64,000 nucleotides of DNA, taken from NCBI GenBank assembly GCA_041389065.1, contig JAWKSM010000003.1, positions 17,595-81,594 on the forward strand. Reading direction: 5' to 3'. This stretch comes from Minisyncoccota bacterium. GTDB lineage: Bacteria > Patescibacteriota > Minisyncoccia > Phycocordibacterales > CSBR16-119. Within the stretch, counting starts at the first letter, position 1; every line of letters starts with the position of its first letter. This document shows, piece after piece, positions 18,750 through 64,000 of the stretch. The position numbers were made by a program, and so were the translations under genes. The notes beneath the pieces were generated by a model. That model did not search any database. It had not been told where the DNA came from and saw only the letters and a program-made list of their open reading frames with translations.

Positions 18750-18789
18750 ATATCTAAATTCTATCGATATATCGACAGAATTTAGATAT
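18750..18789. repeat. 40-nt near-perfect palindrome with a TCGATATATCGA apex (family member)
   Basis: ATATCTAAATTCTATCGATATATCGACAGAATTTAGATAT, with one mismatched pair. It lies in the ftsA-ftsZ spacer. Confidence 0.9.
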
Positions 18790-28035: not shown

Positions 28036-28258
28036 GGGCTTATTATATCAGGTTTTGGGTTTTTAATTGTTAGCCGTCTCGAGCTAGAACCTTTTTATTC
28101 ATTACCCCATAAGATTATTTATTACCTTTTCAAGATATCACAAACACTACTCGGCGAGTATGCAATAAAACTATTAGTCTGCATAGACCTATTCCATTTC
28201 TCTGTGGTTTGTGTAATATAAAGTTCAGAAACACTGAACACAATTAAAACAACATAGC

Positions 28259-28966
28259 ATGGAAACCACGATTAAACCTTTTGACATCGAGGCAATGGCT
28301 AAGGACCTTGAAATTCCAATATGGGAGATCAAGGCACAGCTAGGATTGCCTCCTGACGATGGTCGCGAAGCATTTACAATAGGGGAAGCTCAAAGTGCTG
28401 TCGCTAGAAGCCAGCCTGGATCAAATGAACGGGATATGGCAATGAACAAATGGATCGATCTGTGCACTACAGCCGATGAAATCCAGGAAGCTTTCAATAG
28501 CACACCTGAGGAATCTAAGGCTCGAGCAAGAGCATTAGATAAATGGATCCGCCTTTGTACCACGGTTCCTGATATCAGTAGAGCACACCACAATTCTGTT
28601 CCGGACTCCGAAGAGCGCAGAGCTGCATTCGAGAAATGGCTCAGTCTTTGCACTGAGGTTCACGAGGCTCAAGATGCAAGCACTCAATATCCAATTGGAT
28701 CTGAAGAACGTGAGATGGCATACAAGAGGTGGATTGAGCTTTGTAATAATCCCACTAGCGCCAAGAAAGCTCATGACAAGATGCCGCTTGGAACTAAAGT
28801 CCGTGCTTTAGCACTAGAAAGATGGGAGGAACTTTCGACGGCTGAAGTAGAGGGTGCAACCGAGTTCCTCGAGGTTAAGCATGCTTACGCAAAGATGCCT
28901 CCAGATTGCAAGGCTAGGAGCGTAGCAATGAAGAAACTTGCACGTTTCTACGGCTACACCGAGTAA
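28259..28966 (+). CDS. hypothetical helical-repeat protein (GC-rich island)
   Basis: Five tandem units of about 31 aa have the pattern R..A..KWI.LCT........A....P..SEE. I recognise no known family. Confidence 0.6.
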   Translation: METTIKPFDIEAMAKDLEIPIWEIKAQLGLPPDDGREAFTIGEAQSAVARSQPGSNERDMAMNKWIDLCTTADEIQEAFNSTPEESKARARALDKWIRLCTTVPDISRAHHNSVPDSEERRAAFEKWLSLCTEVHEAQDASTQYPIGSEEREMAYKRWIELCNNPTSAKKAHDKMPLGTKVRALALERWEELSTAEVEGATEFLEVKHAYAKMPPDCKARSVAMKKLARFYGYTE

Positions 28967-28986
28967 GGCAACACCTGCTCGAACGA

Positions 28987-29009
28987 AGAGCCGCCCAATG
29001 GGTGGCTCT
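28987..29009 (+). terminator. intrinsic terminator
   Basis: AGAGCCGCCC-AAT-GGGTGGCTCT followed by TTTTTG. Confidence 0.75.
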
Positions 29010-29233
29010 TTTTGTTTCCTTAATTTTCTCTATCATTTACTTTTATTCTCCTGATAATTTAAATCTTACAGATACAAAAACAGCCCCCAAAGGAGCTATT
29101 TTTTATGCTTCTAGCACTAGCTGTTGAAGGTGAACCAAGCACTTGGTTTTCAGAACTAATAGGAAGCTATCCTTTAATTAAGACAAGTATTGCTGATTTT
29201 CAGGGTTTGAGTTTGGTCCTGGCTTAAAGCAAA

Positions 29234-29261
29234 ACAGGCGCCTCCTTTCGGAAGCGCCTGT
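29234..29261 (-). terminator. intrinsic terminator of the 29266 gene
   Basis: ACAGGCGCCTCC-TTTC-GGAAGCGCCTGT, with an A-run on the plus side (a T-run on the minus strand). Confidence 0.7.
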
Positions 29262-29265
29262 CATT

Positions 29266-29916
29266 TTACTTGCTTACTCGTGGACGCACGAACACGAACT
29301 CATCCGTTTCGTAGCCTCGATACTCCTTGTTTCCTGGTCCATGCTTCAGAGCCTTCTTGAAGCCGTAGCATGTTACCAGAAGCACCGCGTTCATCTCGGT
29401 AGTGGCATCAAATATATCCTGGGTGGCCACCACAAGGGTTTCCCCTTCTGCAGGATAGTTGTGTTGTGGGCAGATCCGCAGACCTGTCTCACTTGGACAA
29501 CACTTGAGACCGAGCTCCTTCGCTCGAGCGAATACTTCTCCGAGAGATGCATCGGTTGCGAGCCCCAGGTTCTCCTTGGTTGCTAAGACAAGATCTATCA
29601 TCCTTGTCTCAACATCAAGTCCGATACCTGTTTGTATCAACTCCAGTGTCTTGGCATTAACATACCAGTTGGATGCTTCTAAGGCATGAAGAATGCCACG
29701 AAAATCGCTTACGCCGCCGACCATCAGGGTCATGAACGTGGCGGAATGGTATCTAATTCGCTCTACGATCACGTAAGTCCCTGTCAGCAGTCCTCGTATT
29801 TGTTCCTTCTTGAGTTGGTTGAGGAACTTAAGCCATTCAAAAAGGCTAAACTGCCAAACATCCCACTTCGCCCATTTGGCAAACATAGTGCCTAGGGTTT
29901 TGATCTCTGTGCTCAT
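29266..29916 (-). CDS. hypothetical protein (GC-rich island)
   Basis: The ORF is 226 aa from the GTG at 29946; the ATG at 29916 is more plausible. No motif recognised. Confidence 0.55.
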   Translation of the reverse strand: MSTEIKTLGTMFAKWAKWDVWQFSLFEWLKFLNQLKKEQIRGLLTGTYVIVERIRYHSATFMTLMVGGVSDFRGILHALEASNWYVNAKTLELIQTGIGLDVETRMIDLVLATKENLGLATDASLGEVFARAKELGLKCCPSETGLRICPQHNYPAEGETLVVATQDIFDATTEMNAVLLVTCYGFKKALKHGPGNKEYRGYETDEFVFVRPRVSK

Positions 29917-30169
29917 CGATCTTGGTTTTATGCTAGCGGGCCTCACTACAAGCGTAGGTTTGCCATAGCCAGGAAAGGCCTAAAATAAGCCTCTTTTGGC
30001 TATGGCAAAGCAAGTAACTTATAAAAGAAATCTGGTGTGATATTACTATTTAATTTTAGATTAGTCAAGTATTTGTTACCCTGAGTCATTACTCGGAAAC
30101 CCACGGTTTTCCGACGGCTTCGCCTGCCTTCCTCCACGGAAAAACAAATGATGTCCCGACCCCTTTCGT

Positions 30170-30245
30170 CCCCGTAGGGTCACAGCTTCTTGACAGTAAA
30201 AATCGCCTTAATGGCGATTTTTACTGAAGCTGTGACCCTACGGGG
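30170..30245. repeat. nested inverted repeat that includes an antisense copy of the tRNA-Glu 3' end
   Basis: CCCCGTAGGGTCACAGCTTC (30170-30189) is the reverse complement of 30226-30245, which covers the last 13 nt of tRNA-Glu plus 7 nt of trailer. The inner hairpin is AGTAAAAATCGCC-TTAAT-GGCGATTTTTACT. Confidence 0.9.
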
Positions 30246-30304
30246 AATCGAACCCCGATTCTCACATTGAAAACGTGATGTCCTAACCGTTAGACGATAG
30301 GGCC
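30233..30304 (-). tRNA. tRNA-Glu (UUC)
   Basis: GGCCCTATCGTCTAACGGTTAGGAC... The anticodon loop is TTTTCAA and the T-loop is GGTTCGATTCC. The acceptor stem pairs over 7 bp with one G-U. CCA is not encoded. Confidence 0.9.
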
Positions 30305-31029
30305 ATTTATTAAATTGGAAACGAGAAAAGTATATCATTTTTTTATTTTGTGGCAAGAAAAGTGCCCTCGTCGATTACAGCGGGGCAGAGTTGGGTTAAT
30401 GGTTTCTTAAACCAAAACCTTTGAACGTTTCTTCGTAAGCCTCACGGGAGACAGTAGCTCACATCGAACAAGGCTTTTGTTGTGGATCACAACACGAACA
30501 GCGCGAATGTTATTCATCTTGATCTCGGCGCCGTTATAGAAAATGCGTGACCTCTTATCAACATAGAAGATAGATGCCATACCAGCATTATGCGTCGATC
30601 AAGTGAAATCAGGGGATCGTCTTCGCGATCCAACAAGTCCATTGTATATTGATGGCGAGAAGTGAATATTTGGACATTGTCGAGATATCATATCCATTTC
30701 AGCAGACGGAGGGAGTGCACTTTGGCTTGAGGCTGATACACGATGAAGGACCTCAGGTTCCTTCAACTTTTGCGAGTTAAACTTGTTGAGTAGCCCGGCG
30801 TGCCGTGACGTAACCCTTTGAAAGATACACTACTTCTTTAGGTTGCATGTTGGTTGGTTTGTTTTGGTGAACTTCCAGAATATAAACTACCATTTTTTCA
30901 AATTAAGTCAAATAGATTGAGTTTATAAAAATAATGTTGTATCTTTATAAAATAATTGCACGGTTAGACTCTCCGCTCGTAATAAGTTTTACGTTCGGGC
31001 AAGAATTGGTAGACTAACCGTAAAATAAT

Positions 31030-31892: not shown

Positions 31893-32993
31893 ATGAAAAT
31901 CTTATCAATAGAAACAAGCTGTGACGAAACAGCAATATCTATTATCGAAGCAAAGGGTGAAATAAATTCACCTTCTTTTGAAGTTTTGTCTGACGAAATA
32001 ATTTCTCAAGTAAATCTACATCAAGAGTTTGGCGGAGTTTATCCAAGCTTGGCAAAAAGAGAACACGCAAAAAACCTTCCTATAATTTTAGAAAAAACTC
32101 TAAAGGATGCAGATTTTTTTGTTTCTGGAAAAACTGAAATTTCAAAAGATGAGATTTTAAAGATTTTAGAAAGAGAACCAGAAATGGCAGAAAATCTTTG
32201 GAAGATAATTTCTTGTATAGAAAAACCAGAGATTGAATATATTGCTGTGACAGCTGGACCAGGACTCGAGCCAGCGCTTTGGGTTGGGATAACTTTTGCA
32301 AAAGCTTTGGCGCATGCTTGGAAAATCCCCTTGATCCCAGTAAACCACATGGAAGGTCACATTCTTTCTTTTTTGTTACAAGACACAGAAAACAAAATTA
32401 GCCAAAAACAAATTGAATTCCCCGCTCTTTCACTTTTAATTTCCGGAGGGCACACGGAATTAATTCTTGTAAAAGATTGGACGAAATATGAAAAAATCGG
32501 ACAAACAGTCGACGATGCAGTCGGAGAAGCTTTTGACAAAGTTGCGAGAATTTTAGGATTGCCATATCCTGGTGGACCAGAAATTTCAAAACTTGCAGAA
32601 CTTGGAAAAGAAAATGAAAAAATAAAACTTCCAAGACCAATGATAAAAACAAACGACTTTAACTTTTCTTTTTCAGGTTTGAAAACTGCAGTTCTTTATC
32701 TTGTCCGAGATCTTGGAGAAATTTCAGAACAAGACAAAAAAGATATTGCACGAGAATTTGAAACGGCTGTTGGAGATGTTTTTGTGCACAAAATTAAAAA
32801 CGCAATTAAAAAATATGGAGTTAAAGAACTCATAATCGGTGGTGGAGTTTCTGCAAACAAATATCTAAGAGAAAGACTGGCAAATGATTTAGATGTTGAA
32901 GTTTTGCTTCCATCAAAAAAACTAAGCACTGACAATTCGATAATGATCGGAATTGCCGGATATTTTAAAATAATTTCCAACCCAAAAAAATAG
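31893..32993 (+). CDS. tsaD: tRNA N6-adenosine threonylcarbamoyltransferase
   Basis: MKILSIETSCDETAISII...PVNHMEGHI...LLISGGHTEL. I chose the internal ATG at 31893. Confidence 0.9.
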   Translation: MKILSIETSCDETAISIIEAKGEINSPSFEVLSDEIISQVNLHQEFGGVYPSLAKREHAKNLPIILEKTLKDADFFVSGKTEISKDEILKILEREPEMAENLWKIISCIEKPEIEYIAVTAGPGLEPALWVGITFAKALAHAWKIPLIPVNHMEGHILSFLLQDTENKISQKQIEFPALSLLISGGHTELILVKDWTKYEKIGQTVDDAVGEAFDKVARILGLPYPGGPEISKLAELGKENEKIKLPRPMIKTNDFNFSFSGLKTAVLYLVRDLGEISEQDKKDIAREFETAVGDVFVHKIKNAIKKYGVKELIIGGGVSANKYLRERLANDLDVEVLLPSKKLSTDNSIMIGIAGYFKIISNPKK

Positions 32994-33043
32994 AGGGCCC
33001 GGACAGTGTCCGAGCCCTCCCGAATTGGTCGGTTGACCAAGGT

Positions 33044-34012
33044 CTATAGAAGCCACCCAAGAGAATTGCGTCGTCTGCCTTTGATGATAGCCCCAGCCTC
33101 CGAGCTTGTTGTAACTTCGAAAGTCATTCGAGGTTCTTCAAAGTTCACAACGCTGAAGCTGGCTGGCAAGTTGTCCACCAAAGCGACCTCAGGACTAACA
33201 ATCACCGCCCCAAGCTCTTCTTGCATTTTGACAAGCTTTGCAAGACCCAAAACGTGCTCGTGTATCATCTTGTCTGTATCCTCGGGAATCGCTTCACGAA
33301 AGCAAGCCTCAAAGTATCGACCCCGGGCACAGATGCATTAAGGAAGGATGCTATATATGCAGCACTCAGGTCGCTCCCTTCTCTTTCATAAGAGAAGTTT
33401 TTTGAACGCTTGATAAATGACCCGCAAGAAAACCTTGTATTACAAATATTTTGGACCCTTTTCAGGATATCGAATTCGTAGAAATGATCTCTTGTTTCAA
33501 TTCTTGATAATTTTTCATTAATAGAAACGTCGAAATACTCGTCTTCACTCGAAGAGAATATGATCTTTCGAGCGTCAACGATGTGAACCCTTCCCCTTTT
33601 GTAGCGAGATCTTCAGAAAGCGGAAAACTATTGCTTGGGAAAAATCCTCTCCCATCGCAACAATCTCAGCATAGATCTTTTTATCAGCATCACCATTTTG
33701 TCGAAGCTGATTGAGAAGAAACTTTGCGCGATCTTCCTTCTCGGCAAAGAATTCCCTCATGTCTTGATCATAGATCTTGAGGCCCTTAACCACACCCTTA
33801 TGGAATTCCAGAAAATCCTTGATGAAAGAATCGAAAGATGCACCTTCGACAATCTTCACTAAAGTATTCGTCATTCCATAAAAGGCAGATACGACGATAA
33901 TGGTGTTGCCGCCATACAACTTGTGTAGTTGCTTATATGTTTTTAACAGGGTCAATAAGTCCTCTGCGGTGCGAATGCATCCACCACCGAACTTGATTAT
34001 GTTAAAGTGCAT
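33044..34012 (-). pseudogene. aspartokinase-like (amino-acid kinase family) gene; GC-rich and frame-broken
   Basis: The N-terminus IIKFGGGCIRTAEDL...IIVVSAFYGMTNTL is the amino-acid kinase signature. Downstream fragments read REGSDLSAAYIASFLNA and GAVIVSPEVA in other frames. Confidence 0.65.
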
Positions 34013-36980: not shown

Positions 36981-37490
36981 ATGTTTAAAAAGAGATCTTT
37001 TTTTGAAAAACTAACTGGCGGACTTTCACTTCGTGATTACGATGAAGATGTTTTCGACGAAGAAGATGATTTTGAAACCGAAGACGAAATTGAAACAAAA
37101 AAAGAATCTCGAAAAGTTCCTGTAACAAACGAAAAAGAATGGATCGAGGAAGAAGAACAAATTGGAGAACTTTCTGTCGATGTTTATCAAACAAATAGCG
37201 ATATTGTGGTTCAAGCAATGGTTGCTGGAGTTCGTCCAGAAGATTTAAACGTAGATATCACAAGAGACACAGTAACAATCTCAGGAAGTCGAAAAGAAAG
37301 CAAGACAGTAAAAGACGACGAATACTTTACACAAGAACTTTATTGGGGATCTTTTTCAAGAACTATAGCGTTGCCGGAAGAAGTTGATCCAGATGAAGCA
37401 GAAGCGACAGAAAAACACGGATTGCTTGTTCTCAAACTCCCAAAGATAGACAAGAACAGACAAACAAAATTGAAGATTAAGTCTATATAA
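36981..37490 (+). CDS. Hsp20/alpha-crystallin small heat-shock protein
   Basis: DVYQTNSDIVVQAMVAGVRPEDLNVDI...GSFSRTIALPEEVD...HGLLVLKLPK is an alpha-crystallin domain. Confidence 0.85.
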   Translation: MFKKRSFFEKLTGGLSLRDYDEDVFDEEDDFETEDEIETKKESRKVPVTNEKEWIEEEEQIGELSVDVYQTNSDIVVQAMVAGVRPEDLNVDITRDTVTISGSRKESKTVKDDEYFTQELYWGSFSRTIALPEEVDPDEAEATEKHGLLVLKLPKIDKNRQTKLKIKSI

Positions 37491-37497
37491 ACGAATA

Positions 37498-37522
37498 GAA
37501 GCCCTCCTGTTTGGAGGGCTTC
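37498..37522. terminator. bidirectional terminator between convergent genes
   Basis: GAAGCCCTCC-TGTTT-GGAGGGCTTC. Confidence 0.7.
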
Positions 37523-37542
37523 TTCGATGGTAGTGTGCATGA

Positions 37543-38052
37543 TCAGGCTTCGGCATATTGCCACTGGAGCAGTTCAAGCATTGAGACGCTCGGGTCTTGG
37601 ACATGTAGCATATATGCGGTGCATACTTCTTCAAGCTTGTAATCACGAGCAACGAGTGTACGCGCTACATCATCAGGAACGCCTGCCATACAGGCAAGAA
37701 TAGCCTTAGCACGATTCTCAATCGGCCCGCGCATTGCATCAATCCTTATCCAAAGTTCACGGTCACGGAAGACACGATGAGTTGGAACTCCAGTCTCAAG
37801 ACCAAAAATGACTTGAGCAAGATGATGGAGATGGCACATCTCCAAAATCGACCCATCCAAAGTGGTCGTGTCAACGGTATCCATACCCGATGACTTAATC
37901 GTGATGATGCGCGGAGTGAAACCGGCAAGTTGAACATCTTGCCAGTTCAAGTGCTGAATGAAACGCACAAGAGCCTTATCAAGAGTCGTTTTGCCACACA
38001 GAGTGTCAGTGGGTTTACCGCCACGGATACGATCTTCAGTATATGTGATCAT
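37543..38052 (-). CDS. hypothetical protein (GC-rich orphan)
   Basis: 169-aa ORF with GC-richer composition and no recognised motif. Confidence 0.55.
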   Translation of the reverse strand: MITYTEDRIRGGKPTDTLCGKTTLDKALVRFIQHLNWQDVQLAGFTPRIITIKSSGMDTVDTTTLDGSILEMCHLHHLAQVIFGLETGVPTHRVFRDRELWIRIDAMRGPIENRAKAILACMAGVPDDVARTLVARDYKLEEVCTAYMLHVQDPSVSMLELLQWQYAEA

Positions 38053-38158
38053 GGAAGGTACTTGTTTTGGTTGACTTGTATAATATCATAATATAAATAA
38101 AAAGTCAATAGTATTTATAAAAAAATAACCTCAAGCAAAGAGGCTATTTTTTATGTTG

Positions 38159-52849: not shown

Positions 52850-53281
52850 ATAAAATTATTTACAAACGTATAATAACACGAAAAAGGTTTGCGGTCAAAT
52901 TAGTGAGTTTCAGGAGTGTTTGTTTTATTTTAACATATAAATTATATCTTTTCTTTCTTCTTAATAAGAAAGAAACAAAGAATCAAGACCTAATTAAATA
53001 TTGCTTAAAATAATAGATTTTAAGCCAATAAAATGATGAACTCGCTATAGAAAGAAGTGCCCCGCACTTCTTTCCCTAACTCAAACAGCATCATTTTCTA
53101 AGGCAAAATACTATTATTTTTGGGTCGCAATATTTAAAACGGTCATAAGATTTTAATTTAAGTGCCAAAAGCATTGAAAAAGGGTTTGTTAGCTTGACAA
53201 ATATTTTATTATATGCTACTATATATATAGAACCTTGAAACGAACCTTCTCGCGAAAGCGAGCATAATCCCCCTTACCATC

Positions 53282-53533
53282 ATGGGCACGAACGAGAAAT
53301 TTTTCTGGGTAATTAGTGATGTCGACCTGAATTCAATGTACGACATCCAGGGACCTAAAATTGGAACTTGTAATGTTTTTATTGGTACCGTTGAAGAGAT
53401 AATCGCATCTTCTACTGGACCAATACATCACACTTCCGACCAGAAGCCAGTTAGGTGCTATGATTCCAGTTTCAAAGAACGCGATGACATGACAATTCGC
53501 GTTATTGAATCTCTGGGGACCCATCTATGTTAA
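53282..53533 (+). CDS. hypothetical protein (GC-rich island)
   Basis: 83-aa ORF preceded by a TTGACA-N17-TACTAT-like promoter at about 53197-53225. Confidence 0.45.
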   Translation: MGTNEKFFWVISDVDLNSMYDIQGPKIGTCNVFIGTVEEIIASSTGPIHHTSDQKPVRCYDSSFKERDDMTIRVIESLGTHLC

Positions 53534-53739
53534 GTGGTAAGCCCAAGAGAAGAGGTTGGGGTCACCTAAGACCAAAGCTCGTCGTGAGACGAACAACCTA
53601 AAGTAGACAAGGCCAAGGCCTTGTCTCTACTTTTGAGGACTTGAAGTGATTCGAGTTTTCAAAGAGTGGAAACGCTCAGTTCTTTTCAACATAAACCCTA
53701 GATTCTGCAATTCTGCAGAATCTTAAACCCCTTTTCACC

Positions 53740-54207
53740 ATGAACTCACCCTCAAGCAAACTGCAAGAAATGGCCAATGCACCCAAGCCCGATGTTGAAG
53801 CAATTTACATCGAATGGGGCAAGCTTTTCGCCAAACTGAAGATCGTGAGCGGTCTTTTCTGCTCGATAGAGACAGTTTGCGACAAGTTGAAGATGTTCTG
53901 CCCGGACGAAGACCCTGAGAGCGATCAAGATGTCTTTCAGGTGTTGCTTTACCCAACCGTGAAGGATGTGGTTGAGCATAGTGATACAGACAATCTTCTC
54001 TATTGCTGTTTCTATTCCGACGGCACCGCCAAGATCGGCAATGAAGAAGACGAGAATCTATGTCAGGCGATGCGGGATTTCAGAGACACTTTCTATGTTG
54101 AGGGTAAGGCCTGTATGACGTGGGAAGAGTTGGCTCGTGAGCTATTCAAGCTTGAGAAGCTTATGCTCTCACAAGTTCCGGAAGTTCCGAGCGACCTGAG
54201 GCCCTAG
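53740..54207 (+). CDS. hypothetical acidic protein (GC-rich island)
   Basis: 155-aa ORF rich in Asp, Glu and Cys, with no recognised motif. A strong hairpin follows it. Confidence 0.5.
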   Translation: MNSPSSKLQEMANAPKPDVEAIYIEWGKLFAKLKIVSGLFCSIETVCDKLKMFCPDEDPESDQDVFQVLLYPTVKDVVEHSDTDNLLYCCFYSDGTAKIGNEEDENLCQAMRDFRDTFYVEGKACMTWEELARELFKLEKLMLSQVPEVPSDLRP

Positions 54208-54248
54208 GGCTTCATGAACACTGAGTTGACGAATGCTTGTCAGCTCGA

Positions 54249-54276
54249 AAAGCCCCGTGCAATCGCGCGGGGCTTT
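54249..54276. terminator. bidirectional intrinsic terminator
   Basis: AAAGCCCCG...CGGGGCTTT with TTTTT downstream. It lies between convergent genes. Confidence 0.7.
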
Positions 54277-54318
54277 TTCATTTTTAATATTCGTTAAATC
54301 TTAATTCCTAAATCTTTT

Positions 54319-55548
54319 TTACACCGTCCGCTTTGGAAAATTTTTATATTTCTCGAGAATTTCTTTTATTGCTTTTAGAAGATAGTCTAGATCAGATTTT
54401 GTTGTGTCTTTGCCGAGAGTGATACGTAGGCCGCCGATTCGCGCATCTTCGTTTGGATAGATTTCTGAAATAACAGAAGACTCGTCGCCGGCGGATTCGT
54501 TGCAAGCTGATTTTGAAGAAACAGATATTCCCTTCGCGTCGAGCTCAAAAACCAGAAGCTCGCTTTCAAAGTTTTTAATCGTAATGTTTATATTATTTGG
54601 TGTTCGCTCTTCCCTGCTTCCGTTTATACGGATTATCTCGCCGAAAATCTCGCCCGACTTTTTGAAAAAATAATCTTGCAAGTTTTTTAATCTTGCCGAT
54701 TCGTCTTCTCTTTCAAGCGCTACGAGCTCGACAGCTTTTGTAAATCCGGAAATAGAAACCAAGTCTTCTGTTCCAGCACGAAGTCCACGCTCTTGTGATC
54801 CACCAAAAACTATCGGCGAAATTGGTGTGCCTTTTCTGACATAAAGAAGAGCTACGCCTTTTGGTCCGTAGATTTTTGAAGAGTTAAAAGTGAGGAGGTC
54901 AACAGGAAAAGCATTCATTTCTATTTCTGCAAAAGCAAAAGACTGCGACGCATCTGTGTGAAGTAATGGATAGACTGATTTCGCGTCGCCTTTTTCAAAC
55001 TTTTTAAAATGACGAATTGTTTTTGAAATTTCTTTTATATCTTGGATTGTTCCGATTTCGTTGTGAGCGTGAATTATAGAAACCAAAACAGTTTCTTCTT
55101 TTAAAAGATTTTTAAGTTCTTTTAAATTCACGAAACCTTTTTCATCAACAGAAATATACGACACTTCAACAAGGCCTTCTTTTTCTAAAGCAGAAAAAGT
55201 TTCCAAAACAGCCGAGTGCTCTATCTTTGAAGTTATTATGTGTGGTTTTACACCTTTATTGTTTTGAAGAAAATTATTTACAACTCCTCTTATCGCCAGG
55301 TTTATACTTTCTGTTCCAGTAGCGGTGAAAATGATTTCGTCGGCGCGCGACCGCAGGGAGCGCGCTATTCTTTCCCGACATAAAGACAAAAACTTCTTCG
55401 CTTCTAAACCATCTTTATGCAAAGATCCAGGATTGGCAAAAAACCGAAAAGCTTTTTGCATTTCTTTTATTACCTCTTCTCGGACAGGGGTTGCAGCCGC
55501 ATAGTCCAAGTAAATATTATTTTTTTCTTTTTTAAACAATGAAAACAT
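54319..55548 (-). CDS. cysteine desulfurase (class V aminotransferase, NifS/IscS-like)
   Basis: IYLDYAAATP..., a PLP-lysine context of FNSSKIYGPKG, and SSKSACNE at the active-site Cys loop. I chose the internal ATG at 55548. Confidence 0.85.
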   Translation of the reverse strand: MFSLFKKEKNNIYLDYAAATPVREEVIKEMQKAFRFFANPGSLHKDGLEAKKFLSLCRERIARSLRSRADEIIFTATGTESINLAIRGVVNNFLQNNKGVKPHIITSKIEHSAVLETFSALEKEGLVEVSYISVDEKGFVNLKELKNLLKEETVLVSIIHAHNEIGTIQDIKEISKTIRHFKKFEKGDAKSVYPLLHTDASQSFAFAEIEMNAFPVDLLTFNSSKIYGPKGVALLYVRKGTPISPIVFGGSQERGLRAGTEDLVSISGFTKAVELVALEREDESARLKNLQDYFFKKSGEIFGEIIRINGSREERTPNNINITIKNFESELLVFELDAKGISVSSKSACNESAGDESSVISEIYPNEDARIGGLRITLGKDTTKSDLDYLLKAIKEILEKYKNFPKRTV

Positions 55549-58182: not shown

Positions 58183-58217
58183 CAAAAAGATGTCTTAAAT
58201 AGGATAATAAAAAGAGC

Positions 58218-58249
58218 GCAAATTGTGTCGATATATCGACATAATTTGC
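58218..58249. repeat. 32-nt palindrome with a TCGATATATCGA apex (family member)
   Basis: GCAAATTGTGTCGATATATCGACATAATTTGC has one mismatched pair. Weaker symmetry extends to about 58208-58259 (AAAAAGAG.../...TTCTTTTT). Confidence 0.9.
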
Positions 58250-58274
58250 ATTCTTTTTATTTAAATATTTTATG

Positions 58275-58724: not shown

Positions 58725-58750
58725 AATTCTATCGATATATCGATAGAATT
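58725..58750. repeat. 26-nt perfect palindrome with a TCGATATATCGA apex (family member)
   Basis: AATTCTATCGATATATCGATAGAATT ends 1 nt before the stop codon of the 58752..59165 gene. Confidence 0.95.
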
Positions 58751-58751
58751 T

Positions 58752-59165
58752 TTATCTTTTTTTATCCATATCGTTCAACCAAGCCCACCTCCCTTTTCCA
58801 GCATATGCTGGCATACCTGCAAGCAAAATCTTTTCTAATATTTTAATAACTTTAACATCTTCTTTTTTCTTAGATAAGGCTAAATTTTTAATCATATTAT
58901 ACTTACCCAATGCAATATCTTCTTGAAACCTCAGAACCGTAGATGTGCTAACTTTTAAATTTTTAGAGATACGATATCTTGAAAAACCTTTTGTTATCAA
59001 AATAATAATCGCGAGCCTTTTCGCAAGCATAACAAACTCCGTCTCTGTAAAAAGTTCTTGTATTAAAAAATTCTTGTTATCGGATCTAGTCAAAGCAAAA
59101 AGTAAATCCTTCTTCATCTTTTTCATCAATTTTTCATTTATTTTATTTTTCGAGACATGGGGCAT
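58752..59165 (-). CDS. TrpR/YerC-YecD-like helix-turn-helix regulator
   Basis: ELFTETEFVMLAKRLAIIILITKGFSRYRISKNLKVSTSTVLRF matches the Trp-repressor-like pattern LT..E...la.R..i...L..G.s...I...l.vs..TI.R. Confidence 0.7.
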   Translation of the reverse strand: MPHVSKNKINEKLMKKMKKDLLFALTRSDNKNFLIQELFTETEFVMLAKRLAIIILITKGFSRYRISKNLKVSTSTVLRFQEDIALGKYNMIKNLALSKKKEDVKVIKILEKILLAGMPAYAGKGRWAWLNDMDKKR

Positions 59166-59178
59166 ATTTTTATTATAA

Positions 59179-59210
59179 CCTAATTATGTCGATATATCGA
59201 CATAATTAGG
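59179..59210. repeat. 32-nt perfect palindrome with a TCGATATATCGA apex (family member)
   Basis: CCTAATTATGTCGATATATCGACATAATTAGG begins 14 nt upstream of the regulator's start codon. Confidence 0.95.
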
Positions 59211-59240
59211 ATATTACTTAATACTAAAATTTATTATCTT

Positions 59241-59300
59241 GTCAAAAAAATATATGAAATTGTATCGATATATCGATACAATTTCATATATTTTTTTGAC
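59241..59300. promoter_or_regulatory. 60-nt perfect palindrome with a TCGATATATCGA apex and TTGAC(A) at both ends
   Basis: GTCAAAAAAATATATGAAATTGTATCGATA|TATCGATACAATTTCATATATTTTTTTGAC. With flanking bases, each outer end reads TTGACA facing outward, followed 16-17 nt later by TATAAG (right) or TATTAA (left). Confidence 0.85.
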
Positions 59301-59362
59301 AGTTAACGTATTTATTTTATAAGAAATTTTAATTTAACCCTTTATTTTCAACGTATTTTAAC

Positions 59363-59392
59363 TTGACAAATACGTATATTTTGTGATATAAT
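59363..59392 (+). promoter_or_regulatory. near-consensus sigma-70-type promoter for the SPFH-like operon
   Basis: TTGACA (59363-59368), an 18-nt spacer, then TG-A-TATAAT (59384-59392). Confidence 0.65.
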
Positions 59393-59471
59393 ATAATAGA
59401 AGACTAGGAGTACTCGCCCACGGCGACGAAAGAAGTCTGTTCATTCACAAAACAACCAAACTACATAGACC

Positions 59472-60650
59472 ATGGAAGCCCTGCTAACATTAGTTTTTTT
59501 AATACTGCTAGTAGTGGCAGTATTTCTTGCACCTGTAGCCCTTTCAAGGGGTTACATTTTCAGAGGATGGCTTCTAAATGACCATTTTCTGATACAGGAG
59601 AACAACGGAAGCTTCGCCGGAATGAAGTTACGTTCTGATACTCACAGCTTTCGAGGTGGACGTGATCCTGTAAATAAATGGGAAATCGTCGAAAGACCGA
59701 CCAAGATGACATGGTGGGAAAAAACCACTGGAACATTCGAGGTCGGTGTGTGGCCAATAGCGCAAGCAAAGAAGGTCTACGTACCCTTGAACAGGCTTGA
59801 TGTTATTAGACCCACCAACCCGAAAGATGCAATTCAGTACTTCATTGACACGGTCACGGTTGAATACCGAGGTGTGCCCAGATCTCTAAAGCATGCATTC
59901 CAAACCAGGCCTGTTGAAACTATGGGAGACCGAAACGGTCAATGCAAGATAGGAGAAACGACCAACCTTGTTGCCCTGGTTACTGAAATACTGTCAGTAG
60001 ACTTTGAGATCTATAACCCGTATCTCGCAATAATGCGAATACAAGAAGCTGCAGGTGTTGTGAATTTTATGCAACACCTCAATGAAACGCTTCAAAGTGT
60101 TGCTCGGGAGATAACTGCAAAGTTCACTTACGAGCAGATCATTAAGGCTACTGTTGAAGGAAACGATGGCAACGCGGATACGAAGTTTGGCGATAAGTTC
60201 AAGGAAATGGCAAACGGAGCTCTAGCCAAGTACGGTATCAGGATCACAAACGTCGATCTGGTGGACCATTTCCTGGATCCGGAATCTGAACAAGACCTAC
60301 TTGCATCCCAAAGAGAAAAGATGAAGGCGGAAGCTAACATCATTAATGCTGAAGGAAGCAAGAGGGTTAAGGAGCTGAATGCTCATGGAGATGCCGCGGT
60401 GCTACGCACTATCATGAAAGAAGCAAAAGGAGACCCGAATATAGTTCTTGCAGAACTTGAAAGGCGTGGTAGAACCGACGCTGCAAGATTTGCAGGAGAG
60501 AAGTTTCAAGGTGAATTCCTAACGCTGAGCTTTGGCGGACCAAACTCTGGGCAACCAGGTCCAACGCCAGCAGTAACGGTCGGCGCTGTTAGCCCAAAAG
60601 AAAAAAAGGGTGATCAAAACAAGCAACAAGAAAAGAAAAAGAGATCATGA
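59472..60650 (+). CDS. SPFH/band-7-like membrane protein (GC-rich)
   Basis: N-terminal TM. The middle LVALVTEILSVDFEIYNPY...ITAKFTYEQIIK...AKYGIRITNVDLVD...ASQREKMKAEANIINAEG resembles an SPFH core plus a coiled coil. The tail is rich in Gly, Pro and Lys. Confidence 0.55.
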   Translation: MEALLTLVFLILLVVAVFLAPVALSRGYIFRGWLLNDHFLIQENNGSFAGMKLRSDTHSFRGGRDPVNKWEIVERPTKMTWWEKTTGTFEVGVWPIAQAKKVYVPLNRLDVIRPTNPKDAIQYFIDTVTVEYRGVPRSLKHAFQTRPVETMGDRNGQCKIGETTNLVALVTEILSVDFEIYNPYLAIMRIQEAAGVVNFMQHLNETLQSVAREITAKFTYEQIIKATVEGNDGNADTKFGDKFKEMANGALAKYGIRITNVDLVDHFLDPESEQDLLASQREKMKAEANIINAEGSKRVKELNAHGDAAVLRTIMKEAKGDPNIVLAELERRGRTDAARFAGEKFQGEFLTLSFGGPNSGQPGPTPAVTVGAVSPKEKKGDQNKQQEKKKRS

Positions 60651-61207
60651 TTACCTTCTTCATCATCGGCATAGCGGTATTAACGCTTGTCGTGGTAGCC
60701 TCTGTATTCACAATTGTGAAAAATAGAGGGGTAAAGAGCAGCGATGTGGCGCCATCAAAGAAAGCTTCGGGCGGAGGGTCCATGATCTTCTGGCCGTTGT
60801 CACGTCTTGGTGTCGCGTGCTTAACAGCAGGATTAGCAATCTTCTGCTGGTGGGCCTGGTATGAGATGAAGGACAGTGGTCACATGCACAAAGGAATGAT
60901 GATAGCCGACGGCACAGGGCTGAAGGTATCGAAACTCCCGAAAGGCGGTGACAAGTCTAAACTCGACCGGTATCAATACCCTCAGAAAGCAGACATGGGT
61001 AGGCTCGAGGGCTTCCTGGTTCCACCAGGAGTTGAGCTCGTCGTGGTACCTCTTAAGATGACACCCGACGGTTCATATCAGCCCAGCGATTTCACTCCAT
61101 CGTTTACCTACACCAACCAGAAGCTCAGTTCTGACTACTGGAAGACTGTACTGGAGGTATACACTTTATATCTGGAAGCAATTCCAAAGATAAAGAAGCG
61201 ACCGTAG
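60647..61207 (+). CDS. hypothetical membrane protein, translationally coupled to the SPFH-like gene
   Basis: ATGA start/stop overlap. Two TM segments are followed by a ~100-aa soluble domain, which could be an NfeD-type partner. This is unproven. Confidence 0.5.
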   Translation: MITFFIIGIAVLTLVVVASVFTIVKNRGVKSSDVAPSKKASGGGSMIFWPLSRLGVACLTAGLAIFCWWAWYEMKDSGHMHKGMMIADGTGLKVSKLPKGGDKSKLDRYQYPQKADMGRLEGFLVPPGVELVVVPLKMTPDGSYQPSDFTPSFTYTNQKLSSDYWKTVLEVYTLYLEAIPKIKKRP

Positions 61208-61275
61208 TCACAAAAGTGGTTAAACACTGATGTGGTTTGGCACACTGCTCCAGCAAAGCAGTATAACGACACAGA

Positions 61276-61299
61276 AGGCTCGCCCCACAGGGCGGGCCT
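61276..61299 (+). terminator. intrinsic terminator of the SPFH-like operon
   Basis: AGGCTCGCCC-CACA-GGGCGGGCCT followed by TTTTT. Confidence 0.75.
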
Positions 61300-61342
61300 T
61301 TTTCTTTTATTTATTTTTAAACTTTTCATTTTAAGACAAAAC

Positions 61343-61366
61343 AAAAACCGCCCGAAGGCGGTTTTT
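61343..61366. terminator. bidirectional intrinsic terminator
   Basis: AAAAACCGCC-CGAA-GGCGGTTTTT. Confidence 0.75.
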
Positions 61367-61370
61367 GTTT

Positions 61371-61694
61371 TTACTCTCCTAGTGACGGAAGATTTACTTC
61401 TCCGGTCTGTGGATTGATTTGATTTTCTATACCCAAGGTTCCTAATATGAGTTGCATTATGAAAAATACAGATCCCATAATAGCCATACCTATTAATCCC
61501 CAAATTATATGCTGTTTACCTTTCTCCCTGCCATCAGCACTACTTGAATCTCGAATGAATTCAAATACACCGTAGACAAAGTAGATGGCCGCAATGGCAA
61601 ACATGAGGGTGATAAGAGGGTTAATAAGTACTTTATTAACCTTTCGTATCGTATCATCAACAGATGCGTAAGCAGTAAAAATGAATGGCCACAT
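61371..61694 (-). CDS. TrbC/VirB2-like (type IV secretion pilin-like) small membrane protein, paralog 1
   Basis: NPLITLMFAIAAIYFVYGVFEFIRDSSSADGREKGKQHIIWGLIGMAIMGSVFFI has a TM, a short charged loop, then a second TM. Confidence 0.65.
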   Translation of the reverse strand: MWPFIFTAYASVDDTIRKVNKVLINPLITLMFAIAAIYFVYGVFEFIRDSSSADGREKGKQHIIWGLIGMAIMGSVFFIMQLILGTLGIENQINPQTGEVNLPSLGE

Positions 61695-61702
61695 ATTACG
61701 TA

Positions 61703-62146
61703 TTAAGGACAGTTAGGTTCATTCCATTGGGTTGCTCCGGTAAGAGGATCGACCCCAACAATAATACAAGAACTTGAGTTTTGAACACTGGTTCCCCCTT
61801 GGTTAACACCGAATGTAGAGTTAAGTATTGCAACAAGCCCCCAGATAGAAACGATTACGAAAAGACCTACAATACCTGAGATAATCATTGTTCTACCCTC
61901 TGCTTGTTTTTCATTATCACTTGCTGTTACATATTTAATAACACCAGCAATAACATATATAACTGCAAGAGTAATCAAAATTGGAATAACAATATTTAAG
62001 ATTCCACCCACCACCGCTAATATATTAAACACTGTAGGACCTCCAATATTTGTACCACCTGGAACAACGGGTTCATTTTGAGCAAGCGTCATCAACGGAG
62101 AAGCTAATAAGCCAACTACTCCAAAAGTTTTTATTAATCTATTCAT
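61703..62146 (-). CDS. TrbC/VirB2-like pilin-like protein, paralog 2
   Basis: A signal peptide is followed by ILITLAVIYVIAGVIKYVTASDNEKQAEGRTMIISGIVGLFVIVSIWGL. A Cys-containing C-terminal tail follows. Confidence 0.65.
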   Translation of the reverse strand: MNRLIKTFGVVGLLASPLMTLAQNEPVVPGGTNIGGPTVFNILAVVGGILNIVIPILITLAVIYVIAGVIKYVTASDNEKQAEGRTMIISGIVGLFVIVSIWGLVAILNSTFGVNQGGTSVQNSSSCIIVGVDPLTGATQWNEPNCP

Positions 62147-62230: not shown

Positions 62231-62653
62231 CTATTGCGACTCTTGAAGCTGTGGAATAAAGGTAGTGTTGCCTATTCCAAAAGTTCCCTGTAAAACCCCC
62301 ACAAGACCCCAAACAGAAACAATCACAAAAAGACCTACTAATCCATATATTATCAGATTGGTTCCCTCTTCTCTGGCCGAACTGTCATCTCCTTTACTAA
62401 TATATTTTATAACACCGACAATAAACACGATCACGGATATAGATATTAGAAGTGGCCAAACAGATTTTTTTAAAATACAAACAGCTAGATCAAAAATATC
62501 TGCAACACTTCCAATATCAGCAGGGCAACCATTTGTGTTATTACTTGTATTGTAATTAACATTAACAACTGGCTGCGCCAAAGCAAAATTTGCAAAAGGC
62601 ATACTCACCGCAACCACCATAATAATTTGTAATAAAAAATTTTTTATCTTCAT
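62231..62653 (-). CDS. TrbC/VirB2-like pilin-like protein, paralog 3
   Basis: A signal peptide is followed by LLISISVIVFIVGVIKYISKGDDSSAREEGTNLIIYGLVGLFVIVSVWGL. Confidence 0.65.
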   Translation of the reverse strand: MKIKNFLLQIIMVVAVSMPFANFALAQPVVNVNYNTSNNTNGCPADIGSVADIFDLAVCILKKSVWPLLISISVIVFIVGVIKYISKGDDSSAREEGTNLIIYGLVGLFVIVSVWGLVGVLQGTFGIGNTTFIPQLQESQ

Positions 62654-62660
62654 ATTTTAA

Positions 62661-63533
62661 CTAACTAATAAAATTAATAATTGTTTGTACGTAAACCAAA
62701 TTCAACTCGTCAAATGTTCCCTTTAAAACTTTTACTATCGTCCAAGCGCTGAGCAGTATCAAAACTCCGACCACAACCCAGAGCAAGTTTGTTTTTGCGG
62801 ACTCTAGCTCTTTTTCATTTCCTCGAGCCATAACAAGTCTAAGCCCAGAATAAACCAAGAATATTACCATCACCGGAATTCCTATCTTAAGTAAAGCATT
62901 TAAAAGTCCAATTACAAAACCGTTTAAATCAGTAACATTGAGCGGGTTTTGAAAAACAGCCTGTGGCCAGCCAGCAGTTGTTGCGGTGCCGTTTGGATCT
63001 GTTGCATTACCCCCTCCTGGGTTATTATTTCCATCTGTTGGTGGATTGTTGTTTCCACCATCAGACGGAGGGTTGTTGTTGCCTCCTGGCTGCCCTGGAG
63101 AGACTGAAGTTACAAGAACTGAAGTTGTAGGAAATAAGTTTACAGTTTGTGGCGCAAGTCTGAAAAGGAAATAATAATTTGTGCCTGGCAAAAATTGCTG
63201 AGATGAACCAGAAATAGTACCAAAAAAACTATTAGAAGATGAGAAGTTGTTTAAAGTTGGATCTTGGTGGCCCAGAAACCAGTTATTAAATGAAATATTT
63301 GGATCATTTATATCTGGCGGCGGAGTGTCGTAAACATTAAAGAAAACGCCTACGTCTTGAATATTTACACTCTCTAAAGAAAGATTGCCTGAAACATCGG
63401 CGGTTATTTGACCACTATCCTCTTCAAAAACAGCATTTGGTCCTACAGAAAAAGATGCTGATTGAGCATATGAAAAAGATGGAAATAGAAGAACGAAGAT
63501 TGGTATTATTAAAATTTTATAAAAAAACTTCAT
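62661..63533 (-). CDS. TrbC/VirB2-like pilin-like protein with a ~190-aa N-terminal ectodomain, paralog 4
   Basis: A signal peptide and a variable domain are followed by a GGNNNPPSDGGNNNPPTDGNNNPGGG linker. The C-terminus is NPLNVTDLNGFVIGLLNALLKIGIPVMVIFLVYSGLRLVMARGNEKELESAKTNLLWVVVG. Confidence 0.65.
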   Translation of the reverse strand: MKFFYKILIIPIFVLLFPSFSYAQSASFSVGPNAVFEEDSGQITADVSGNLSLESVNIQDVGVFFNVYDTPPPDINDPNISFNNWFLGHQDPTLNNFSSSNSFFGTISGSSQQFLPGTNYYFLFRLAPQTVNLFPTTSVLVTSVSPGQPGGNNNPPSDGGNNNPPTDGNNNPGGGNATDPNGTATTAGWPQAVFQNPLNVTDLNGFVIGLLNALLKIGIPVMVIFLVYSGLRLVMARGNEKELESAKTNLLWVVVGVLILLSAWTIVKVLKGTFDELNLVYVQTIINFIS

Positions 63534-63535
63534 AT

Positions 63536-64000
63536 TTAAACAAGATAATGACTAATCATAGCAATACTTTCTATTGTTTCTTTTATAAGTTTTGCAAAAA
63601 TCCAAGCGCCAAGAAGTATCGCACCACCGATAACAGCATAGGTGAAAGCATTTCGCGCAGTTTCAAGTTGGGCTGTATCCCCTCTTGCGGTCACAAATAA
63701 AAGACCAGAATAAATAATTGCAATTGCAATAATTGGAATACCAATTTTAATTGCGAAAGTGATCACCTTTTCAATAAAACTAACCAAAGTCATATTGCTA
63801 TCCCCTATTGGATTTTGAATATTTATGTCGATTTCTTCACCGGATATTCCTATAGGATTGGTGTTGGCGCCACTATTATTTGTTGTAGAATTTTGCTGAG
63901 TTAAATCTGCTGGCCAGGTTGATTGATATGTAATTTGAGTTACATATTGCCAATTTCTATCATCACACTCATTTACAGAACAATTATATTTTAGATTTGA
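63536..64000 (-). CDS. TrbC/VirB2-like pilin-like protein with an N-terminal ectodomain, paralog 5 (5' end beyond the window)
   Basis: The frame stays open to the window edge. The C-terminus is NPIGDSNMTLVSFIEKVITFAIKIGIPIIAIAIIYSGLLFVTARGDTAQLETARNAFTYAVIGG. Confidence 0.65.
   Translation of the reverse strand, partial: SNLKYNCSVNECDDRNWQYVTQITYQSTWPADLTQQNSTTNNSGANTNPIGISGEEIDINIQNPIGDSNMTLVSFIEKVITFAIKIGIPIIAIAIIYSGLLFVTARGDTAQLETARNAFTYAVIGGAILLGAWIFAKLIKETIESIAMISHYLV

Follow-up and report, generated by a model that had tools for sequence, protein, structure and literature searches.

A divergent SPFH gene and its two-helix membrane partner form a strain-variable operon beside a VirB2-like pilin array in a Minisyncoccota genome

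A two-gene operon encoding an SPFH/Band_7 protein and a small membrane protein is located in a 64-kb stretch of a Minisyncoccota bacterium contig (JAWKSM010000003.1), which is referred to here as the window and whose positions are used throughout. The SPFH gene (59472-60650, + strand) encodes 392 residues comprising a transmembrane (TM) anchor, an SPFH domain with insertions, a helical region and a tail, while the partner gene (60647-61207, + strand) encodes 186 residues with TM1, a K/R-rich loop, TM2 and a beta-rich C-terminal domain. The two open reading frames (ORFs) share a 4-nucleotide (nt) ATGA overlap (60647-60650), and the original prediction of a two-gene operon with these sizes is confirmed in its coordinates. 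We compared the window locus (W) with the loci of relatives of all degrees of divergence (L001-L017, of which L003 is an ENA contig), all of them found on metagenomic contigs from NCBI, ENA, JGI and Logan, including some short-k Logan assemblies. In all loci the two genes were observed to be coupled by a stop/start overlap or a gap of at most 2 nt. The promoter and leader of the operon are conserved among the relatives, and between two near-identical strains most of the SPFH gene is replaced by another allele class.

The assignment of the first protein to the SPFH/band-7 family, proposed from the sequence alone, was upheld by a hidden Markov model (HMM) search in which Pfam Band_7 (PF01145) was matched above its gathering cutoff (E=1.6e-9, 38.5 bits vs 23.6), and 13 of 15 family members match the same profile. 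The match spans profile positions 81-174 only, which form the second half of the profile and correspond to residues 190-295. Compared by hand with a typical SPFH sequence pattern, the first half of the domain seems to be present and broken by insertions, with 'FLIQENNGSF' found after the anchor and 'VDFEIYNPYLAIMRI' as the canonical strand ahead of the helices. These large insertions, which leave only the second half of the domain to match Pfam, distinguish the protein from E. coli QmcA, to which the sequence similarity is marginal (hhalign E=8e-5; HMMER E=0.014-0.35). In a PDB search with a profile of 15 family members, HflC was found to be the best match (2.3e-5, over SPFH2 and CC1), with P. 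horikoshii stomatin, HflK, QmcA, human stomatin and prohibitin as further matches. Only SPFH proteins were observed at the top, and the best E-values (2e-5 to 0.1) are scattered over several SPFH subfamilies. There is no close sequence kinship to any one of the named subfamilies (stomatin/QmcA, flotillin, HflK/C and FloA), and no NCBIfam, PHROGs or PADLOC model matches the protein. The family is also rare, as the family profile, run with HMMER against all of 1.84 billion cluster representatives, gave 25 matches at E<1e-3 and 12 at E<1e-10. When GTDB genomes were scanned for protein patterns derived from the SPFH alignment, no relative came up, and no relatives of the SPFH protein or of the leader were found in viral contigs and a phage collection. 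By these profile comparisons, the protein is a real yet very divergent, lineage-restricted SPFH branch outside all the named subfamilies.

The N-terminal TM anchor of the SPFH protein (approximately residues 3-24) is kept in all homologues, some of which have 2-4 TM helices. Identical proteins are entered at NCBI as 'SPFH domain-containing protein' and 'hypothetical protein R3B39_02220'. The start chosen by NCBI is Met51, giving a protein of 342 residues that skips 59472-59621 and cuts off the anchor; as every homologue retains the anchor, 59472 is to be preferred as the start. Residues before the anchor are acidic and those after it are basic, and in relatives with two or four TM helices the N-terminus is rich in K. 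The SPFH domain is therefore predicted, from the positive-inside rule, to face the cytoplasm, and an N-terminal anchor with a cytoplasm-facing SPFH domain is also found in E. coli QmcA-YbbJ (SPFH1/stomatin-type with NfeD) and in FloT-YuaF and FloA-NfeD of Firmicutes. The protein resembles HflK/HflC (SPFH3) in that HflC is its best solved-structure match, but HflK and HflC are two paralogues that act together with FtsH and are oriented towards the periplasm, whereas here a single, predicted cytoplasmic SPFH gene product shows no FtsH linkage.

The C-terminal part of the SPFH protein consists of a long helical region (approximately residues 270-344) followed by a Pro/Gly/Lys-rich tail. AlphaFold2 alignments were shallow because so few homologues exist, and the model of the SPFH protein built from a 5-sequence alignment is of low confidence, with a mean predicted local distance difference test score (pLDDT) of 43. 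Strands, helices at 166-254 and a long helix at 270-344 were observed in this model, and a short strand comes after the C-terminal helical region, as it does in cage-forming SPFH proteins. All the significant Foldseek matches (top 28) are SPFH structures, with template-modelling scores of up to 0.6 on isolated SPFH domains; Foldseek results on models of low pLDDT are used here as weak consistency checks only.

The partner protein has hydrophobic helices at approximately residues 2-24 and 46-71 and a beta-rich C-terminal domain of about 115 residues. A common architecture was observed in 8 divergent partners, where TM1 lies at the extreme N-terminus and is followed by a 30-50-residue loop, TM2 and a C-terminal domain of 115-130 residues. 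The partners of the relatives are approximately 190-225 residues long and are encoded directly after the SPFH gene wherever the sequence suffices. Their loops are usually K/R-rich, with up to 13 K+R, and several ectodomains contain 2-3 Cys. The loop is predicted to be cytoplasmic and the C-terminal domain extracytoplasmic by the positive-inside rule. No family match was found for the partner in Pfam, NCBIfam, PHROGs or PADLOC and no match in a PDB profile search, and Foldseek on its low-confidence AlphaFold2 model (5-sequence alignment, mean pLDDT 45) gave nothing significant. We also noticed that the last 12 or so residues of the window partner (approximately 61178-61207; ...YLEAIPKIKKRP) differ from those of its closest homologues (...YLGSNSKDKEATVVTKVVKH), apparently through a 1-nt indel; this is a genuine frameshift or else an error in the sequence of the metagenome-assembled genome.

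A layout of this kind would also be expected of an ordinary housekeeping SPFH-NfeD pair, in which the partner would be a cryptic, fast-drifting short NfeD protein, the function would be generic membrane protein quality control as in FloA-NfeD or QmcA-YbbJ, the variation would come from neutral drift and background recombination, and the neighbouring pilin genes would be coincidental. The order of an SPFH gene and then a small membrane partner, with a 4-nt stop/start overlap, is that of E. coli qmcA-ybbJ, and the partner shares its N-terminal TM helices and small C-terminal domain, here beta-rich, with the partners in QmcA-YbbJ-type pairs. Short NfeD partners of SPFH2 proteins are, in addition, barely detectable at approximately 21% identity (PMC2636767). 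Against this, none of the 8 divergent partners matches Pfam NfeD (PF01957) at E<=10, and hhalign assigns a probability of 0.8% to the alignment with E. coli YbbJ, which amounts to no similarity. Unlike YbbJ, the partner is thus not detectably NfeD, in line with the original prediction, which recognised no motif in it, and the positive-inside rule puts its soluble domain, as a prediction, across the membrane from the SPFH domain. We consider the housekeeping explanation possible but doubtful.

Both genes were found to be richer in GC than the backbone, in agreement with what had been claimed for them (46-50% vs 37%). The GC content is 0.456 in the SPFH gene and 0.496 in the partner gene against 0.370 in the window, and the GC content at third codon positions (0.425 and 0.578, respectively) is likewise above the gene mean of 0.31 (sd 0.096). 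The pair forms the longest GC-rich island in the window, though others exist. The pair is richer in GC than its flanks in every relative (0.42-0.53 vs 0.30-0.40), so that a high GC content belongs to the cassette pool as a whole and does not point to one recent import. One possible cause is GC-biased gene conversion at a recombination hot spot. No support was found for high conservation or high expression as the source of the GC richness, since the other GC-rich patches are Pfam-less orphans and not ribosomal-type genes.

The operon is preceded by a sigma-70 promoter with an extended -10 element (TTGACA-18-TGaTATAAT; 59363-59392, + strand; score 12/12, with TG at -15/-14). This promoter, which the original prediction described as near-consensus, matches the consensus perfectly and is the sole perfect match to TTGACA-18-TGnTATAAT in the 64 kb, where 0.02 matches are expected by chance even allowing one mismatch. 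Among L001-L017, the 13 distinct relatives with sequence extending this far all have it ahead of the SPFH gene, as TTGACAAA...TGnTATAAT, and expression of the operon is probably strong and constitutive. At the other end, the operon has its own intrinsic terminator, as predicted (61273-61312, + strand), which consists of a hairpin at 61273-61302 with a 13-bp stem containing 8 GC pairs and then a T-run.

Between the promoter and the start codon lies a 5' leader (59399-59471, + strand), the transcription start near 59399 being inferred from the -10 box. The leader contains a hairpin at 59399-59439 (GAAGACUAGGAGUACUCGCC-CAC-GGCGACGAAAGAAGUCU) and then a CA-rich, G-poor tract up to the ATG. A segment of approximately 40 nt (GAAGACUAGGAGUACUCGC-loop-GCGAnGAAAGAuGUCU) is near-invariant in nine loci (W, L001, L003, L006, L009, L012, L014, L015 and L016), where the ORFs behind it are only 22-50% identical. 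This segment is found at one place in the window, and it folds into a hairpin of two stems with a loop-E-like internal loop in which AGUA faces GAA. In L005 a hairpin of other sequence and similar shape was found, and L010, L011 and L017 have ACGACUnnACGUCGU in place of the usual hairpin. An Rfam search of the leader and the intergenic region gave no family, only spurious hairpin matches on AT-rich palindromes. The minimum free energy of folding of the leader is unexceptional (z=0.28), and RNAalifold detected no covariation in it because the stems are invariant.

A Shine-Dalgarno sequence was observed upstream of none of the 38 window genes checked, and the leader of the SPFH gene has none before its ATG. 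Several window genes have a TATAAT box within approximately 10 nt of the start codon. This suggests widespread leaderless or Shine-Dalgarno-independent translation among the window genes, and in view of the apparently leaderless genes a structured leader of approximately 72 nt is unusual for this genome. The leader is probably an mRNA-stabilising or regulatory 5' element, and its hairpin is a candidate for a new cis-regulatory or stabilising RNA element. Two other roles for the leader were rejected. An upstream ORF starting from the ATG inside GAAAGATGTC is not tenable, as the ATG is missing in W and L009 and neither the frame nor the stop is conserved. The AGGAG of the leader is not taken as a Shine-Dalgarno sequence, as it lies approximately 60 nt from the start codon and none of the 38 genes shows such a sequence.

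Five VirB2-like pilin genes (61371-61694, 61703-62146, 62231-62653, 62661-63533 and 63536-63793, - strand; PF18895, T4SS_pilin) are located downstream and are convergent with the SPFH operon. Four of the five reach the PF18895 cutoff of 26.6 bits (26.6-38.8 bits) and the first, pilin1 (61371-61694), falls below it (22.9 bits). A second GC hairpin (AAAAACCGCCCGAAGGCGGTTTTTGTTTT; 61344-61372), read directly from the sequence with A and T runs at its sides, is probably the terminator of these convergent genes. The 290-residue pilin at 62661-63533 has a long N-terminal extension with a low-complexity NNNPP(S/T)DGG repeat. The convergent arrangement of array and pair was observed in 9 of 9 lineages with enough downstream sequence (W, L001/2, L003, L005, L006-8, L009, L011 and L015), and SBP, methyltransferase and gyrA genes are often found beyond the array. 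Upstream of the pair, DUF4446, IF-2, RbfA and tRNA genes are present in most loci. The upstream genes are different in L005, which represents the single rearrangement survived by the link between the pair and the pilins. The site was never found empty or holding an unrelated system in any relative: an SPFH gene with a two-TM partner is always present, even in a relative whose IF-2 is only 80% identical.

VirB2-like arrays of 2-11 highly variable pilins have been described in Patescibacteria (PMC12102498), and such an array is essential in Ca. Southlakia epibionticum (PMC10633639). The five-gene PF18895 array, with its very variable members, resembles those arrays, and neither of the two papers mentions an SPFH or two-TM pair beside them. 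The stretches examined beside the array showed no virB4.

On the other side of the operon, a TrpR/YerC-like helix-turn-helix (HTH) regulator gene (58752-59165, - strand) is transcribed divergently. The encoded protein matches Pfam Trp_repressor (E=3.6e-7, 30.6 bits vs a cutoff of 27) and scores only 17 bits against NCBIfam yecD_yerC, where the cutoff is 42. With these matches and those of the pilins to PF18895, the predicted placement of the operon between a palindrome-bearing regulator and five pilin-like genes is correct. The regulator gene is AT-rich like the backbone (GC 0.30) and unlike the SPFH pair. A palindrome core (TCGATATATCGA) occurs in 5 copies in the window against 0.12 expected. 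Two palindromes with this core lie at 59175-59301, one at the promoter and start of the regulator (59175-59214) and the other being a 62-nt perfect palindrome (59240-59301). The five copies of the 26-nt palindrome AATTnTrTCGATATATCGAyAnAATT are at 18750-18789, 58214-58253, 58725-58750, 59175-59214 and 59240-59301. The first of these copies is upstream of ftsZ, whose start is near 18926, and hints at a small regulon including cell division.

The TrpR-like gene and the palindromes are present in W, L003, L006-8, L015 and L016 and absent in L005 and L012/13. In L014, and probably in L001, a tRNA gene (then a terminator) lies directly upstream of the SPFH promoter in the place of the regulator. 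Palindromes of the ATCGATA|TATCGAT type were observed only in loci with the regulator, at the regulator's own start. By this distribution, the palindromes track the regulator and not the SPFH promoter, and they are probably operators of the TrpR-like protein.

It had been proposed that the regulator, the palindromes and the SPFH pair form one self-contained, horizontally acquired island. The raised GC, the tRNA cluster immediately upstream in W and the divergent orientation of the regulator and the SPFH operon fit such an island, but the GC of the regulator is backbone-like and several relatives keep the pair without the regulator and the palindromes. When synteny was examined, the SPFH and partner genes were found together in every relative, and the constant neighbour of the pair was observed to be the pilin array while the regulator is facultative. 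The conserved neighbourhood, as judged from gene order in these loci, is thus the SPFH pair with the pilin array and not the regulator trio. The pair also occupies the same site in the relative with the 80% identical IF-2, the ORFs and called genes surrounding it showed no integrase gene, and no direct repeats in the 64-kb window involve 59472-61207. A single acquired island is very improbable. From the constancy of the site in all relatives, the lack of repeats at the pair and the lack of relatives in phages and viral contigs, we likewise judge that the pair is not a mobile genomic island. The suggestion that the unit was probably acquired holds in part: the pair is compositionally distinct from the backbone, but the site is occupied in all relatives, the coding cassette moves by allelic replacement and all the alleles are GC-rich.

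The clearest case of allelic replacement was found between W and L003, which are near-identical strains. Their IF-2 proteins are approximately 99.6% identical (2 of 509 residues differ) and their RbfA and TrpR proteins approximately 99%, and divergence in the backbone amounts to 0.09-0.21 substitutions per synonymous site (dS; 0 for pilin1), with at most 0.006 per nonsynonymous site (dN). The SPFH proteins of the same two strains are only 49-50% identical. By blastn, nucleotide identity ends at 59477, 6 nt past the ATG at codon 3, and returns at approximately 60502-60510 (about codon 347), and the blastn and codon divergence data together place the swapped tract, occupied by another SPFH allele class in L003, at 59481-60510 (+ strand). 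In codons 1-343 the proportion of differing synonymous sites (pS) is 0.81, which is saturated, and dN is 0.52. The SPFH tail and residues 1-76 of the partner are identical, synonymous sites included, and residues 77-175 of the partner differ again (dS 0.74, dN 0.14). A second mosaic tract in the locus was observed in pilin4 (62661-63533), which is 62% identical between the strains, with dS 0.51 and dN 0.33 in its variable part. Since synonymous divergence is saturated, the SPFH alleles are old and imported and have not evolved rapidly in place. Drift in place, as the housekeeping explanation has it, cannot yield saturated dS over approximately 1 kb within flanks at dS 0-0.2, nor alleles that are incongruent with their flanks.

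Such incongruence was also found between other loci. W and L001 have SPFH genes that are 86% identical in nucleotides (dS 0.49) within flanking pilins that are approximately 70% identical (dS 0.85-1.8), and their partners are only 27% identical. In L001 and L015, the flanks are 85-92% identical in nucleotides and pilin1 is 100% identical, while the SPFH proteins are 22% identical, without a nucleotide match, and the partners 40%. The same pattern of conserved flanks and divergent SPFH was observed for L015 and L012. In W, SPFH type A is accompanied by partner type 1, and in L001 by type 2; partner type 2 is also found with an unrelated SPFH type in L015. By these comparisons, SPFH and partner types reassort and the alleles are incongruent with their flanks. 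Pilin1 shows 100% amino acid identity within W/L003 and within L001/L015, despite strong differences in the neighbouring pilins and the SPFH pair; it may be the 3' recombination anchor or have a distinct constrained role.

The mosaicism could in principle be an artefact of metagenome assembly, in which chimeric contigs are joined at the conserved promoter, leader and tail segments. The comparison loci are all metagenomic contigs and the breakpoints do coincide with conserved segments. The same incongruence was nevertheless observed in independent NCBI, ENA, JGI and Logan assemblies and in several locus pairs, and the L003 leader differs from the W leader at several positions, so that its upstream part is not simply W sequence. 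A chimera would, moreover, still need a foreign allele flanked by near-identical sequence in some genome, which leads to the same biological conclusion. We therefore find an artefact hard to credit.

As for the mechanism, homologous recombination is the simplest, with the promoter and leader, the SPFH tail with the partner N-terminus, and pilin1 as the likely anchors. Natural competence has been shown in cultured bacteria of the Candidate Phyla Radiation (CPR) (PMC10187176), which makes recombinational exchange plausible. No silent donor cassettes were found when both proteins were searched by tblastn against the 64-kb window. Mutagenesis by a diversity-generating retroelement was rejected, as the window holds no template/variable repeat pair, the window ORFs not having been screened for reverse transcriptase.

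A fixed site of atypical GC at which deeply diverged alleles reassort is also reminiscent of defence hot spots. The pair might accordingly be an anti-phage or superinfection-exclusion cassette in which an SPFH sensor or effector and its partner are in an arms race with CPR phages, and the tiny, lineage-restricted family and the probably strong, constitutive expression would agree with this. But no PADLOC model matches either protein, no effector-type domain (nuclease, TIR or pore-former) was found in Pfam and NCBIfam scans, and the literature search found no SPFH-based anti-phage system. The site is also never empty or held by an unrelated system in the relatives, and no phage homologues were found. 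A role in defence is thus quite improbable.

The interpretation which we favour, with modest confidence, is that the locus encodes a lineage-restricted cytoplasmic SPFH scaffold and a co-translated, surface-exposed variable partner, whose cassette is exchanged by homologous recombination at a pilin-adjacent site. The anatomical and evolutionary findings behind it are solid, and from them we infer the mechanism. Oligomeric rings or cages on the membrane are the usual assemblies of SPFH proteins. The SPFH protein, held by one N-terminal helix, would form a cytoplasm-facing oligomeric scaffold like QmcA, flotillin and stomatin, and this scaffold would enclose or organise the TM helices and the basic loop of the partner, the loop being within reach in the cytoplasm. 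The partner would display its variable domain of approximately 115 residues on the surface of a monoderm cell. The operon would be transcribed from the consensus extended -10 promoter, with the leader stabilising or regulating the mRNA, and together with the VirB2-like pilin array it would form one cell-surface locus at a fixed chromosomal site. The SPFH body, the partner ectodomain and some pilin domains would move separately between strains and species, and diversifying or frequency-dependent selection by phages or hosts may keep the deeply diverged allele classes.

Several points weigh against this interpretation. The most serious is that diversifying selection would not obviously be expected to act on a cytoplasmic SPFH domain; hitch-hiking is insufficient for the SPFH polymorphism because the SPFH body was exchanged alone between W and L003. 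The identical N-terminal half of the partner beside SPFH bodies of approximately 50% identity in these two strains argues against tight co-adaptation. The AlphaFold2 models, at mean pLDDT of 43 and 45, give no trustworthy structure for the cage, the partner fold or the contact between the SPFH protein and the partner. The topology is read from the charge distribution alone, and the loops of two partner variants are neutral or acidic. The position next to the pilins may simply reflect gene order inherited in one narrow clade, which is tested only by L005. As the comparison sequences are all metagenome assemblies, chimeras can form at conserved segments. In the swapped tracts dN/dS is not computable because dS is saturated, and positive selection is not demonstrated there.

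A broader form of the proposal, which we put forward as a speculation that is unlikely to hold in full, is that an episymbiotic CPR lineage maintains a balanced polymorphism of envelope modules and uses the locus as their expression site. Interchangeable cassettes of an SPFH cage and a surface-exposed partner would be driven there by a strong, invariant promoter and by a leader RNA, an undescribed motif, that binds a protein or the ribosome. The cassettes would work with the adjacent VirB2-like pilins for strain-specific host or phage recognition. Frequency-dependent selection would preserve the allele classes across species, and natural transformation would transfer them.

Capsule and O-antigen loci and pilin expression sites are cassette-type polymorphic surface loci flanked by conserved genes. 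The SPFH locus resembles them in its fixed site, its conserved recombinable flanks, its deeply diverged, backbone-incongruent alleles and its atypical GC. It differs from them in that the cargo is a cytoplasmic scaffold with a small membrane protein, in place of a pilin or genes for glycan synthesis, and that no silent donor copies were found within 64 kb. SPFH operons with small membrane partners are already known, and lateral transfer of SPFH genes has been documented (PMC2636767, PMC13086221), but strain-level allele swapping of this kind is not described for SPFH genes in those two papers. In the sources searched, we found no description of a divergent CPR-restricted SPFH branch, of its constant pairing with a non-NfeD two-TM partner and a VirB2-like array, of a conserved promoter/leader expression site, or of strain-level cassette swapping of SPFH.

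Other features of the window were noticed as well. Further GC-rich islands (44-50% GC) at 28200-30850, 32850-33500, 37350-38100 and 53250-54500 encode Pfam-less orphan proteins, one of which (28259-28966) contains internal '...KWIxLCTT...' repeats, and these orphans may be further variable or exchanged genes like the SPFH pair. An NHL-type repeat array at 25209-27181 (- strand), with a period of approximately 143 nt (YVxDxxNxRIQKFDxxGxxxxxFGSxGSGxGQF), has its frame broken into pieces and is either a pseudogene or the result of an assembly or frameshift problem within the repeats.

SPFH scaffolds occur in all domains of life, and their bacterial roles are poorly defined and usually viewed as those of slow housekeeping membrane organisers. 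Here, an SPFH gene behaves as a hypervariable surface locus beside pilin arrays that are thought to mediate contact between CPR bacteria and their hosts. The leader adds a candidate cis-regulatory RNA in an organism where none of the 38 window genes checked bears a Shine-Dalgarno sequence, and the start codon annotated by NCBI is corrected. If the proposed interpretation is true, it would connect an SPFH scaffold with the variable interface formed by the envelope of ultrasmall episymbionts and would provide a concrete case of cassette exchange in CPR populations.

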